39,762 bases of DNA. It comes from a virus. Lineage: Duplodnaviria; Heunggongvirae; Uroviricota; Caudoviricetes. The translations under genes were made by a program, and so were the position numbers. Shown in pieces: positions 27,140-39,053 of the stretch. The notes below the pieces were generated by a model, which worked only from the letters and a program-made list of their open reading frames with translations, ran no database searches and was not told the DNA's origin. Location of the stretch: IMG/VR virus record IMGVR_UViG_2541047839_000005. One strand, 5' to 3'. Every line of letters starts with the position of its first letter. Position 1 is the stretch's first letter.

Positions 27140-27384
27140 ATGTCGATGTACACAACCGCCCAACTGCTGGCGGCAAATGAGCAGAAATTTAAGTTTGATC
27201 CGCTGTTTCTGCGTCTCTTTTTCCGTGAGAGCTATCCCTTCACCACGGAGAAAGTCTATCTCTCACAAATTCCTGGACTGGTAAACATGGCGCTGTACGT
27301 TTCGCCGATTGTTTCCGGTGAGGTTATCCGCTCCCGTGGCGGCTCCACCTCTGAATTTACGCCGGGATATGTCAAGCCGAAGCA
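27140..27384 (+). pseudogene. E: major capsid protein E, 5' fragment (codons 1 to about 82) truncated by island insertion
   Basis: MSMYTTAQLLAANEQKFKFDPLFLRLFFRESYPFTTEKVYLSQIPGLVNMALYVSPIVSGEVIRSRGGSTSEFTPGYVKPKH matches lambda E to the KPKH codons. The sequence then diverges into island DNA and stops at 27415. Confidence 0.85.
27375..27384 (+). repeat. attL core of the inserted island (AGCCGAAGCA)
   Basis: 10-bp sequence repeated at 38263..38272. Both copies sit exactly where identity to the lambda E gene ends and resumes. Confidence 0.6.
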
Positions 27385-27547
27385 CTTAGCATGGCTTTCT
27401 GAGGCTTTCGTGTAGTTGCTGGTTTTTACACTTAATCTTTTGATAATAAAGAATAAGTTTATCTGGTGCTTTCACTGAATTTTCCTCGTTATCTGTGTGT
27501 TGCAATCATCTCTGTATTGCAGCTTGTATTGCTTTTTGGGGCTAAAA

Positions 27548-28783
27548 ATGGCTGGCGAGAACAAACTGAGCGACAAAGCGCTTAAAGGATATCTGGGGAA
27601 ACCCAGAGAAAAGCAGATCACCATTGCTGATGGAAAGGGGCTTTCTATTCGTGTGAGTACTAAAGGGGCTGTGAGCTTTGTTTTCTTCTACAGGTTAGCA
27701 GGTGGCCGGGCTGCTCCGGTCTGGCTAACGTTGGGTAAATATCCTGATATGTCACTCAAACAGGCAAGGGAAAAGCGCGACGAGTGCCGTGGTTGGTTGG
27801 CTGACAAACGTGATCCGCGTATCCAGATTAAGATTCAGGCTGAAGAACGCTTAAAGCCGGTCACTGTGGAGGATGCACTAAATTACTGGTATGAAAATTA
27901 CTGTAAGGTGCGTCGTAAAACTCATGCTGTAACGCTTGGCAGATTTCGAAAGCATATCTTTCCCTATATCGGTCATTTGCCCGTAAATGACACTCACCTA
28001 TATGAATGGCTGGACTGTTTTGACCGAATTAAACGTAATGCACCAGTTATGGCGGCGTATGTTTTTTCTGACACTAAATTAGCTCTTCGTTTTTGTCGGG
28101 TACGCCAGTACGCGACGTGTGATGCTTTAAAGGATTTGCGCATGAGTGATGTGGGGCAGATTGCAGGTAAGCGGGATCGGGTTCTGGATGAAGCCGAACT
28201 CGGCCAGCTCTGGAAGGCAATTTTTGTCGAGCCTGATTTAAAACTAATGTCTGAATACACGCGAAAAATGTTTGTGCTTTGTACAGTATTTGGATGTCGA
28301 ATGAGTGAAGCCCGATTATCAGAATGGAGCGAATGGGATCTCGAAAGTTGGGTTTGGACTGTACCAAAAGATCACTCAAAAACTGGTGTTGAAATCGTCA
28401 GACCAGTACCTGAAATTCTACGACAGTGGGTAACGGATGTTCACGAAGAGACAAAACATACTGGTTATGTGCTGGGAAGTCTGCGAATTAGAGAAAGCGT
28501 AAGCAAGATTGGGGGGAAAATCGGTAAACGTTTGGGCCATGAAAAACAATGGTCACTACACGACCTTAGAAGAACGCTATCTACTCATCTAAGTGATCTC
28601 GGTGTTGAATTTTATGTAGTAGAACAACTGTTAGGCCATGCGCTACCTGGCGTGGCAGGTGTTTACAACCGGAGTAAGTTTATGGCTAAAAAACTGGATG
28701 CTCTGGAACTCTGGACTACATATCTCAATAGCATCGCAGGTGCTGATTCAAAAGTGATAATCCTCAAACAAAAGGTTGGTTAA
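27548..28783 (+). CDS. int: island integrase (P4-family tyrosine recombinase)
   Basis: About 411 aa from MAGENKLSDKALKGYLGKPREKQITIADGKGLSIRVSTKG (arm-binding N-terminal domain). C-terminal HDLRRTLSTHLSDLGVEFYVVEQLLGHALPGVAGVYNRS carries the catalytic motifs. Adjacent to the att junction. Confidence 0.85.
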   Translation: MAGENKLSDKALKGYLGKPREKQITIADGKGLSIRVSTKGAVSFVFFYRLAGGRAAPVWLTLGKYPDMSLKQAREKRDECRGWLADKRDPRIQIKIQAEERLKPVTVEDALNYWYENYCKVRRKTHAVTLGRFRKHIFPYIGHLPVNDTHLYEWLDCFDRIKRNAPVMAAYVFSDTKLALRFCRVRQYATCDALKDLRMSDVGQIAGKRDRVLDEAELGQLWKAIFVEPDLKLMSEYTRKMFVLCTVFGCRMSEARLSEWSEWDLESWVWTVPKDHSKTGVEIVRPVPEILRQWVTDVHEETKHTGYVLGSLRIRESVSKIGGKIGKRLGHEKQWSLHDLRRTLSTHLSDLGVEFYVVEQLLGHALPGVAGVYNRSKFMAKKLDALELWTTYLNSIAGADSKVIILKQKVG

Positions 28784-28784
28784 C

Positions 28785-29012
28785 ATGAAAAAAATGGCAA
28801 TTGTTGATAAAAAGGGTCTGGAGTACATTCCTAACATTGACCGAATGATCCGTGAGAAAGAATGTCGGGAGCTAACCACTCTTGCGAACAGCACACGCTG
28901 GAAGCTGGAGAAGGAAGGAAAATTTCCTAAGCGGATCAAGATTGGTTCCACTGCTGTTGCATATCGTCTTTCAGAAGTGCAGGCATGGATTCGAGGTGAG
29001 TGGGTAGTTTAA
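28785..29012 (+). CDS. alpA: AlpA-family transcriptional regulator / excisionase-like protein
   Basis: Small HTH protein immediately after int (IDRMIREKECRELTTLANSTRWKLEKEGKFPKRIKIGSTAVAYRLSEVQAWI), the usual int-alpA arrangement of P4-like elements and PICIs. Confidence 0.7.
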   Translation: MKKMAIVDKKGLEYIPNIDRMIREKECRELTTLANSTRWKLEKEGKFPKRIKIGSTAVAYRLSEVQAWIRGEWVV

Positions 29013-29037
29013 ATTATCTCAGAATAAAATATTATGA

Positions 29038-36713: not shown

Positions 36714-37241
36714 ATGAACAAAAAAAACATGGCAAAAAGTTGCCGTGTAAGCGCCACTGCGTTCGATAAGTGGGGAGTGATTCCCGTCGAGCGTAAGGGC
36801 CGCGAGGCGTTTTATGATGTCGCCAGTGTAATAGATAATCGGGTTAACAATGCAATCAGCCAGATTACAAACGAAACGGGCGAGATTGATGATGATGAAC
36901 TCCTACGAGTCAGGATCAGATTGCTGACAGCACAGGCAGAGGCGCAGGAGCTTAAAAACGAGCGCGAACGCGGCGACGTTATTGATACAGCGTTTTGTAT
37001 ATACGTGCTTTCAAAACTGGCGAGTCAGATTTCTTCAATCATGGACAGCCTGCCGCTTGCCATGACAAGGAAGTTTCCCGACATGAAGCCGTCTATGCTG
37101 GATGGACTGAAAAAAGAAGTTATCAGAGCCTGTAACGCATGCGCAAAACTTGACGAAAACATACCGCTGATGCTGTCCGATTATCTGATGGAAACTGCCG
37201 GAAACGTACCGGATAAGTTGCAGCTGAATAAAGATAAGTAA
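36714..37241 (+). CDS. island small terminase subunit (divergent Nu1 homologue)
   Basis: Collinear with Nu1 throughout (RLLTAQAEAQELKNERERGDVIDTAFCIYVLSKLASQISSIMDSLPLAMTRKFPDMKPSMLDGLKKEVIRACNACAKLDENIPLMLSDYL) but only partly identical. Directly downstream of the island cos, as nu1 is downstream of the prophage cos. Confidence 0.75.
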   Translation: MNKKNMAKSCRVSATAFDKWGVIPVERKGREAFYDVASVIDNRVNNAISQITNETGEIDDDELLRVRIRLLTAQAEAQELKNERERGDVIDTAFCIYVLSKLASQISSIMDSLPLAMTRKFPDMKPSMLDGLKKEVIRACNACAKLDENIPLMLSDYLMETAGNVPDKLQLNKDK

Positions 37242-37252
37242 CGTAGTACGCT

Positions 37253-37534
37253 ATGACTGAATCCGAAATACTGCGATTAATCCGCCGTGCTTGTGGAATC
37301 AGCAAGCAGCATGACGAACAGGCCACGCAGCCGGACAGCGTGATCGCCGAAAATTACGCGCGTGTTGTTGCTGATGTGATGCGCCGTGATGGTATTGAGC
37401 TTAACGGCGTGGATATGCGCGACATACGGATCAGATTCCTTGAGTTGCTGGCATACCGTCGCCGTTCTCAACAACGAAGGGAGAGCGCGAAAAACACTTA
37501 TCAGTGGAAGAAGCCGGAACGGTTGCGGCGGTAG
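37253..37534 (+). CDS. hypothetical protein
   Basis: 93-aa ORF immediately after the island terS. No recognised motif. Confidence 0.4.
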   Translation: MTESEILRLIRRACGISKQHDEQATQPDSVIAENYARVVADVMRRDGIELNGVDMRDIRIRFLELLAYRRRSQQRRESAKNTYQWKKPERLRR

Positions 37535-38262
37535 ATTCCTGATATTCAGGAAAACCACGAATCCGGGGGTTTTACTGGCGCGGTGTACACGGTGGAACGT
37601 ATAGCGTTACCTGACTTATTGCATTGTAAAAAGTTGAAAGGCACGGCCTGTAAGATGGGATGTTGTGAGTAGTTTAAAGCTACCCGCAAATTCTTTCGTT
37701 GTGCTGGCACAGGCGGTTAAACCGTCGGTAACTGGATAATCCCCACTGGGGGAAAAGCTGGCTACATCCCTCACATCTGAGGACTGATAACGCAAAATTG
37801 CGTTGGCTGGCAGAGTGCAAATTTGCACGATGGCCTAACCCATTGATTCTTTCGAAAACCCCCATTGGGGGAGAACGGGGGAATAAACCTGACTCATTGA
37901 TTTTTCCACAATCCTTAATTTGAGGAAGCTGGATAGTTGCACTACCCAAAAAGTGCAGTACCCACATAGCTGCTTAATAGCGTTTATTTTTTCCGCACAC
38001 CTCAAATCTGAGAAGGCCGGAATGATGACATGGCAGGATTATGATTCCTTGATTTCAAGGAGTCCTCCAGTGTGAAAATGAAATTATCTGGGCTGGTGGG
38101 TGAGTTGCTGATCTGCAACTCGGCTATGAAACTTAATAATCGAACAGCATGTAAATTCATTTCTGTGTATTGCAGCATGTATTGCAACATAGTCATTCTG
38201 GTAGAGATTATGCTCTATTTTTCCTCTTATATCATTCACATACTTACGTCATTGACTCATGT

Positions 38263-38272
38263 AGCCGAAGCA
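38263..38272 (+). repeat. attR core of the inserted island (AGCCGAAGCA)
   Basis: Second copy of the 10-bp core. The lambda E sequence resumes from here (CCG AAG CAT GAG GTG AAT CCG CAG ATG ACC). Confidence 0.6.
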
Positions 38273-39053
38273 TGAGGTGAATCCGCAGATGACCCTGCGT
38301 CGCCTGCCGGATGAAGATCCGCAGAATCTGGCGGACCCGGCTTACCGCCGCCGTCGCATCATCATGCAGAACATGCGAGACGAGGAGCTGGCCATTGCCC
38401 AGGTCGAAGAGATGCAGGCAGTTTCTGCCGTGCTCAAGGGCAAATACACCATGACCGGTGAAGCTTTCGATCCGGTTGAGGTGGATATGGGCCGCAGTGC
38501 GGCCAACAACATCACGCAGTCCGGCGGCACGGAGTGGAGCAAGCGTGACAAGTCCACGTATGACCCGACCGACGATATCGAAGCCTACGCGCTGAACGCC
38601 AGCGGCGTGGTGAATATCATCGTGTTTGATCCGAAAGGCTGGGCGCTGTTCCGTTCCTTCAAAGCCGTCAAGGAGAAGCTGGATACCCGTCGCGGCTCTC
38701 ATTCCGAGCTGGAGACAGCGGTGAAAGACCTGGGTAAAGCGGTGTCCTATAAGGGGATGTATGGCGATGTGGCCATCGTCGTGTATTCCGGACAGTACGT
38801 GGAAAACGGTGTCAAAAAGAATTTCCTGCCGGACAACACGATGGTGCTGGGGAACACTCAGGCACGCGGTCTGCGTACCTATGGCTGTATTCAGGATGCG
38901 GACGCACAGCGCGAAGGCATTAACGCCTCTGCCCGTTACCCGAAAAACTGGGTGACCACCGGCGATCCGGCGCGTGAGTTCACCATGATTCAGTCAGCAC
39001 CGCTGATGCTGCTGGCTGACCCTGATGAGTTCGTGTCCGTACAACTGGCGTAA
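38265..39053 (+). pseudogene. E: major capsid protein E, 3' fragment
   Basis: PKHEVNPQMTLRRLPDEDPQNLADPAYRRRRIIMQNMRDEELAIAQVEEMQAV... to ...DPDEFVSVQLA matches lambda E residues about 80 to 341. An in-frame TAG (38262..38264) lies immediately upstream. Confidence 0.85.

Follow-up and report, generated by a model that had tools for sequence, protein, structure and literature searches.

Virus record IMGVR_UViG_2541047839_000005 of IMG/VR (Caudoviricetes) is a 39,762-nucleotide stretch of DNA, here called the window, that contains a lambdoid prophage whose major capsid gene, E, is interrupted by a phage satellite. A satellite within the major capsid gene had been proposed in a first-pass annotation of the sequence; that observation is confirmed, and the structural interpretation placed on it is supported. 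The E open reading frame (ORF) starts at 27140 (MSMYTTAQLL...FTPGYVKPKH) and tracks lambda E as far as KPKH, where the sequence becomes foreign and the 5' fragment gains nine codons (LAWLSEAFV) before a stop at 27413–27415. To the right of the insert E resumes (EVNPQMTLRR...) and continues to its stop at 39053. An exact 10-bp direct repeat, AGCCGAAGCA, lies at both ends of the insert, which places the breaks at 27384/27385 and 38272/38273 and gives an insert of 10,888 bp. Joining 27140–27384 to 38273–39053 produces a 1026-nt ORF of 341 residues with no internal stops.

The ORF reading and the exact repeat thus bear out the clean break in collinearity with lambda E that had been placed after KPKH at 27384. 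Resumption of E had been put at 38265 and in the same frame. That position falls inside the right-hand repeat (38263–38272) and so within the crossover core. The statement about frame is correct for the gene without its insert; as the DNA stands, the insert length of 10,888 (3n+1) shifts the 3' piece of E by one frame relative to the 5' piece. No E-like sequence precedes attR, and attP does not supply a replacement 3' end for the gene; E is therefore split and not expressible while the satellite is in place.

All of the satellite ORFs are open. Its integrase, alpA and primase genes are on the plus strand, co-oriented with the helper head genes upstream and with FI and the tail genes downstream. 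The contents that had been listed for the insert from its sequence, namely an integrase, AlpA, a replicase with an origin, a single-stranded DNA-binding protein (SSB), capsid and decoration homologues, a cos site and a small terminase, were all recovered by Pfam, PHROG and motif scans. The putative origin is marked by nine TRTCTACCT iterons where 0.32 are expected, all of them in 33516–33742 and none elsewhere in the window. The right end of the satellite is ~730 bp of non-coding DNA that contains one att arm. Annotation, Pfam and PHROG found no head-tail connector gene among the insert ORFs, nor any gene for a portal, protease, large terminase, tail or lysis function; from the latter absences we infer that the satellite depends on a helper phage.

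Recurrence of the junction and assignment of the satellite

The reconstructed empty site (800 nt) matches 86 phage records as one unbroken alignment, 78 of them at 95–99% identity, the annotations there being major capsid protein E and head protein D. The two E fragments are thus contiguous in related uninterrupted phages, as the first-pass annotation had implied. It had also suggested a search for the same arrangement in other Enterobacteriaceae genomes, and a 300-nt left-junction probe is covered over at least 80% of its length in 173 of 5426 complete E. coli genomes. Some 3000 other genomes have matches to the probe, and in the rows sampled these break off at the junction itself (probe position 150). 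At 80% coverage or more, the complete 13-kb region was found in 43 genomes. The junction is both recurrent and precise, and is the product neither of chance nor of a chimeric assembly.

An arrangement of this type was described by Tommasini, Mageeney & Williams (2023, NAR Genomics and Bioinformatics; PMC10111431), who named it the helper-embedded phage-inducible chromosomal island (HE-PICI). Their type element, Eco567.11capE (hereafter 11capE), is an 11-kb island in the lambda-like capsid gene of a prophage of E. coli NRG857c, with an identity block of 10 bp and a capsid gene of its own, and they catalogued 201 elements at the same location, E:Phage_cap_E:80, together with 290 at 13 other prophage late-gene sites (PMC10111431). 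The satellite in the window very probably belongs to the same site group and shares the helper-dependent life cycle proposed below. Its integrase is 99.3% identical to that of 11capE over 411 residues, and its AlpA (100%), capsid protein (98.6%), decoration protein (100%) and SSB (94.6%) are similarly close. The E 5' fragment ends at position 78 of the Phage_cap_E profile in the current Pfam version, compared with about 80 in the name of the site group.

All 163 nt of the attL of the catalogued element Eco2673.11.E_Phage_cap_E_80 are found unchanged in the window, as are 151 nt of its attR, and the published attB primers have matches at 27058 and 38573. Several entries in the supplementary catalogue of PMC10111431 are exactly 10,888 bp long, with the core agccgaagca and with tRNA-Arg helpers. 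In this family a doubled motif (tgTGTATTGCantgTGTATTGCa; TGTATTGCnnnnTGTATTGC) is present as two co-oriented copies, one lying 81 ± 2 bp upstream of the attP centre and the other 132 ± 2 bp downstream of it (PMC10111431). The doubled arm motif TGTATTGC has only two matches in the 39.8 kb, at 38166–38185 and 27513–27532, which are −81.5 and +131.5 bp from the centre of the reconstructed attP.

The gene content leads to the same placement. HE-PICIs have four zones, in the order integration, Bro, replication and late, with captured helper late genes; their attP provides no replacement sequence, regulation in cis has been proposed for them, and AlpA was found to be the best signature separating satellites from prophages (PMC10111431). 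The element in the window lies in a late gene, which it splits, with all of its key genes on the plus strand, and the identity of its integrase places it in the 11capE integrase clade. It also has the features of Gram-negative PICIs generally: int and alpA at one end, its own primase and iteron origin, a size in the range of ~10–15 kb, and no tail or lysis genes. The earlier suggestion of a possible distinct satellite family does not hold, as the family was published in 2023 and the element matches a catalogued member across attL. The features of the satellite and its junctions are listed in Table 1, together with the helper packaging genes.

Table 1. Positions of the satellite, its junctions and the helper packaging genes in the window.
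Feature	Coordinates	Strand	Basis or remark
Helper cos (overhang)	21007–21018	+	
Helper Nu1	21196–21741	+	
Helper A	21716–23641	+	
Helper portal gene B	23841–25445	+	TGA at 24309–24311
5' fragment of helper major capsid gene E	27140–27384	+	Codons 1–82, ending ...KPKH; Pfam Phage_cap_E profile positions 1–78
attL copy of 10-bp identity block AGCCGAAGCA, crossover core	27375–27384		Same block listed for E_Phage_cap_E_80 HE-PICIs in PMC10111431 Supplementary File 1
Satellite, probable HE-PICI of 10,888 bp	27385–38272	+	100% identical to copy in E. coli GN06489
Doubled arm motif tcTGTATTGCagctTGTATTGCt	27511–27533	+	Begins 131.5 bp downstream of attP centre
Tyrosine integrase, 411 aa	27548–28783	+	Pfam Arm-DNA-bind_3, Phage_integrase
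AlpA (excisionase/activator), 75 aa	28785–29012	+	Pfam Phage_AlpA, 56 bits
Variable zone of low G+C	29082–30271	-	178-aa protein without known function (29082–29618) and YlcI/YnfO-family protein (29969–30271); no PADLOC match
Icd-like cell-division inhibitor, three small conserved ORFs, DUF4222 protein, up to primase gene	30480–31753	+	RefSeq annotation of identical copy; PHROG, Pfam
Replication initiator, D5-type primase/helicase, 583 aa	31750–33501	+	Pfam D5_N, DUF5906, Pox_D5
Putative replication origin	33516–33742		Nine TRTCTACCT iterons in both orientations with A+T-rich spacer between; directly 3' of primase gene
SSB	34045–34494	+	Pfam SSB
Satellite major capsid protein homologue, lambda E family, 346 aa	34711–35751	+	Pfam Phage_cap_E, 143 bits
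Head decoration protein homologue, lambda D family, 113 aa	35761–36102	+	Pfam HDPD
Second AlpA-family helix-turn-helix (HTH) regulator, 127 aa	36114–36497	+	Pfam Phage_AlpA; PDB 8c3t AlpA; phrog_2790
Satellite cos site	36524–36587	+	cosQ-like stretch and cosN match lambda; overhang GGGCGGCGACCT at 36554–36565; similarity runs on to ...TATTTATGA
Nu1-type small terminase (terS), 180 aa	36699–37241	+	Pfam Phage_Nu1, 87 bits; phrog_57 full length, 175 bits
Conserved late-zone protein, function not known, 93 aa	37253–37534	+	phrog_1561
Doubled arm motif tgTGTATTGCagcaTGTATTGCa	38164–38186	+	Ends 81.5 bp upstream of attP centre
attR copy of identity block AGCCGAAGCA	38263–38272		
3' fragment of helper gene E	38273–39053	+	Last base of codon 82, codons 83–341, stop; Pfam Phage_cap_E profile positions 93–328

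Head and packaging genes of the satellite

In the late zone, the satellite capsid protein is 42% identical to helper E and the decoration protein 38% identical to helper D. The satellite cos site was recognised against the lambda cos sequence, which an identical prophage cos in GN06489 corroborates. Satellite and helper cos are alike over ~73 bp (the cosQ-like stretch, cosN and a few bases more), and beyond this, as far as terS, the two sequences are unrelated. The satellite Nu1-like protein is 38% identical to helper Nu1 from end to end, with a conserved C-terminal half and a diverged N-terminal DNA-binding part. In lambda Nu1 it is the C-terminal half that binds the large terminase (PMC6739421).

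Packaging of the Rpp type was considered for this element and rejected. The protein in the rpp slot has no BLASTP similarity to RppA of CFT073 and no match to any RppC chain in the PDB; it is instead a full-length Nu1 homologue. We infer that this variant may redirect packaging through a substitute small terminase with its own cosB, and not through an Rpp-TerS heterocomplex (TerS and TerL being the small and large terminase subunits). The claim that the satellite cos would be packageable by the helper large terminase is plausible. Some Gram-negative PICIs were already noted to carry terS homologues (Fillol-Salom et al. 2018, PMC6092414), and the terS variant is therefore a variation within known kinds.

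The presence of an intact E-like gene in the satellite agrees with the first-pass annotation, which had called it a replacement capsid gene; the replacement role itself is weakly supported, as the same capsid and decoration pair is found in the PICI EcCICFT073 and in a sister satellite in STEC313 (NZ_CP041433.1, locus L005, 2648–13532). The pair looks like a general feature of the PICI late zone and not like a tailored substitute for the broken helper gene. Deletion of the pair in EcCICFT073 was assayed for phage interference, and that element is described as packaged in full-size phage heads (PMC6092414).

Several further features were sought in the satellite. A defence cargo was dropped as a candidate, as PADLOC returned no defence match among seven satellite proteins; the type element, in contrast, has HEPN and DUF262 genes. 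No immunity RNA of the P4 CI/isrK/C4 type was found in the window by Rfam at the gathering threshold. A permissive Rfam scan gave a SymR-like match below that threshold at 30413–30485 on the minus strand (35 bits, gathering score 61; E = 0.001), which lies antisense to the 5' end of the satellite Icd-like gene and could be an antisense regulator of it.

Proposed life cycle, helper prophage and alternative readings

The satellite tyrosine integrase recombined a 10-bp core, AGCCGAAGCA, with an identical stretch in codons 79–82 of a lambda-type E gene. In the life cycle to which the arrangement can be fitted, helper late transcription would read from the head genes into int-alpA and trigger excision, and the excised satellite would replicate with a primase of its own from the iteron origin. 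The satellite concatemers would presumably be cut at the lambda-type cosN by the helper large terminase, guided by the satellite Nu1-like subunit, in which a retained TerL-binding C-terminal half would be combined with a different DNA-binding domain matched to the private cosB. Packaging would then be into heads and tails made mostly of helper proteins. The early part of this scheme has a counterpart in 11capE, where after mitomycin C the composite prophage excises and replicates, and later precise excision of the satellite restores E and yields a circular attP form (PMC10111431).

Embedding in an essential helper late gene is an unusual form of parasitism: the replication and expression of the satellite are bound in cis to the helper, and the helper capsid protein is withheld until the satellite departs. 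This was published in 2023 with induction data, and the window adds no new principle. What it does add is a clean example, mapped from end to end, of a satellite that has a lambda-type small terminase of its own together with a private cosB, and it also indicates that the capsid and decoration pair is a general late-zone feature and not a tailored replacement.

The helper is a prophage whose packaging and head block, which includes W, lies upstream of the insert (20977–25445, plus strand). In the near-identical genome of GN06489 the prophage is at a tRNA-Arg; its early genes resemble those of DLP12, and its head and tail region is lambda-like. The portal gene has a TGG to TGA change at 24309–24311, where lambda and NRG857c have TGG (Trp157); of the 5426 complete E. 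coli genomes only four have this nonsense allele, and they are also the four with the island at 99% identity or more. The resident helper is probably defective in assembling heads. The helper cosN overhang, GGGCGGAAGGCG, differs from the canonical lambda overhang of the satellite, GGGCGGCGACCT, at 5 of 12 positions. This was considered as a lesion and rejected, as the same allele is present in 48 records, plasmid-sized ones of ~46 kb among them, and is a natural variant.

The satellite has no differences from the GN06489 copy over 10,888 bp, whereas the flanks (20645–27384 and 38273–39762) vary: the head genes are ~2% different in clustered patches, for example at 21400–21640, and the early region differs by less than 0.1%. 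This suggests that other lambdoid prophages in the same cell have recombined in patches with the head genes, or converted them; the satellite would be spared, as it has no paralogue. Independent acquisition of an identical island by diverged flanks was judged less likely, since the two prophages agree at 99.9% in the early region and share the rare portal allele.

Elsewhere in the prophage, a BstA abortive-infection defence protein is encoded at 12897–13826 on the plus strand (PADLOC BstA, 402 bits, nearly full length), which RefSeq annotates as hypothetical. Between the Q antiterminator and holin genes, a frequent slot for accessory genes in lambdoid phages, is a low-G+C cargo of two genes (15848–18239, minus strand) encoding a 404-residue protein with no family match and an NA37-family nucleoid-associated protein; a 1-bp indel near 17413 puts the gene for the latter out of frame compared with GN06489. 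A DLP12-type, ybcK-like large serine recombinase with Resolvase, Recombinase and Zn_ribbon_recom domains is present at 10737–12263 on the plus strand. Homology to GN06489 places emrE upstream and iss/bor near the lysis genes in the helper prophage.

Four points weigh against the proposed life cycle, or fail to help it. Neither 11capE nor its helper gave detectable virions, and transfer has been shown for no member of this site group (PMC10111431). The portal nonsense codon means that the helper of this copy may be unable to make heads without another helper, and with the mismatch at cosN the terminase of this helper may or may not cut the satellite cos. Finally, in a scan of the satellite for sigma-70 promoters and terminators the counts equalled those of shuffled sequence, which gives read-through activation no support either way.

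Other readings of the locus were weighed against its assignment to the E:Phage_cap_E:80 HE-PICIs. Nothing was found in favour of a chimeric assembly at the split gene or of a random insertion that happened to fall in E, although one sequence taken alone could not rule out misassembly. Either is close to inconceivable given the recurrence of the junction in 173 complete genomes that were assembled independently, the exact 10-bp repeat and exact restoration of the E ORF, the arm motifs at fixed distances from the core, and the detection by deep sequencing and quantitative PCR of the attB and attP predicted for the type element (PMC10111431). Membership of another satellite class has more to recommend it at first sight: the capsid, decoration and small terminase genes are features of capsid-forming PICIs (cf-PICIs), the integrase, AlpA and D5-type primase are of the P4 kind, and HE-PICI integrases lie in a larger clade that includes P4 (PMC10111431). 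However, the 10.9 kb contain no portal, prohead protease, large terminase or connector, so that the element cannot build heads alone as a cf-PICI would, and no annotated ORF matched the Psu, Sid or Delta families in Pfam or PHROG scans, which argues against a P4-like element; either placement is very improbable.

Two further alternatives concern not the class of the element but what its genes do and what has become of this copy. It is unlikely that the E-like and D-like genes specifically replace the broken capsid gene, with heads built from the satellite's own shell protein. The pair is intact and conserved in the group (98.6% and 100% identical to the type element), belongs to the same Pfam families as helper E and D, and was raised as a possible back-up in PMC10111431. 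Against this, EcCICFT073 at phoQ interrupts no phage gene yet has the same pair in the same order, the STEC313 sister is embedded in a portal gene and carries the pair but no portal gene, and, as PMC6092414 is cited in PMC10111431, knockout of a PICI capsid gene was tolerated. The low identity to helper E and D further leaves the fit with helper portal, protease and scaffold unproven. A more serious possibility, although still not the one we favour, is that the satellite is an intact element stranded by a dead resident helper and mobilised only if another lambdoid phage infects or is induced. The portal nonsense codon, a rare allele, and the frameshifted NA37-family gene are in keeping with such a relic, as are the many HE-PICI helpers that look truncated and whose satellites may await a new helper (PMC10111431). 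The perfect identity of the satellite to the GN06489 copy, with all ORFs open, and the annotation of the other head and tail genes as intact in GN06489 speak against it. Only 12 portal subunits are needed per head, and a UGA at a Trp codon is readable at a low level by tRNA-Trp, so that readthrough could restore the wild-type residue. The relic reading concerns the state of this copy and does not contradict its assignment to the HE-PICI family.

Comparison with related satellites

The satellite resembles 11capE in having the same target codon in E, the same kind of 10-bp block, the same spacing of arm motifs and the same co-orientation with the helper late genes. It differs in that the core of 11capE is AACCCAAGCA, its helper is integrated at icd, and its HEPN and DUF262 cargo is at the right end. 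The primase is only 47% identical to that of 11capE, and a swap of the replication module is therefore indicated. The cos regions also differ, as that of 11capE ends in a 64-residue Nu1 stub whereas the element in the window has a full Nu1-like terS of 180 residues. The type element was stated to lack terS and to share 258 bp at 90% identity with its helper cos (PMC10111431); on recomputation the NRG857c satellite and helper cos are alike over 259 bp at 92%, compared with the ~73 bp in the window. Since the type element was described as lacking terS, packaging through a satellite small terminase is undiscussed for embedded satellites. A bolder proposal, which we regard as doubtful, is that the terS-bearing, capsid-embedded subgroup is an intermediate between classical PICIs and cf-PICIs, in which the satellite Nu1 would recruit helper TerL without Rpp or helper TerS, and an E-like/D-like shell of its own would be assembled on helper portal, protease and scaffold while helper E is still interrupted.

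EcCICFT073, the model Gram-negative cos-type PICI (Fillol-Salom et al. 2018, 2019; PMC6092414, PMC6739421), has the same overall gene order: int-alpA, a variable zone, Icd-like, DUF4222, primase and SSB genes, followed in the late zone by capsid, decoration, a small regulator, a packaging-specificity gene and the conserved 93-residue gene. Its capsid protein, c1499, is 56% identical to that of the satellite, the product of its last gene is 73% identical to the 93-residue protein, and it too has a lambda-type cosN with a private cosB. In contrast, EcCICFT073 integrates beside phoQ in the chromosome and not in a prophage, and it redirects packaging by RppA (144 residues), which is obligately paired with helper TerS. 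In the window terS fills the rppA slot, and the full Nu1 homologue could bind TerL directly. A comparable logic is seen in the pac-type Staphylococcus aureus pathogenicity islands (TerS-SP, summarised in PMC6739421), in which a satellite small terminase steers the helper large terminase to the satellite packaging site; these are Gram-positive elements with headful (pac) packaging and unrelated sequences, whereas the window has a lambda-type cos, and the analogy would be functional only.

A relative outside the capsid site is the STEC313 sister. It differs in its integrase and AlpA region, in the presence of a Bro-N gene and in its target, the portal gene instead of E, and it might correspond to one of the B:Phage_portal_2 site groups of PMC10111431. 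Its replication and late zones are ~91% identical to those of the satellite at the DNA level, it shares the capsid, decoration, HTH regulator, terS and 93-residue genes, and it is likewise embedded in, and co-oriented with, a helper late gene.

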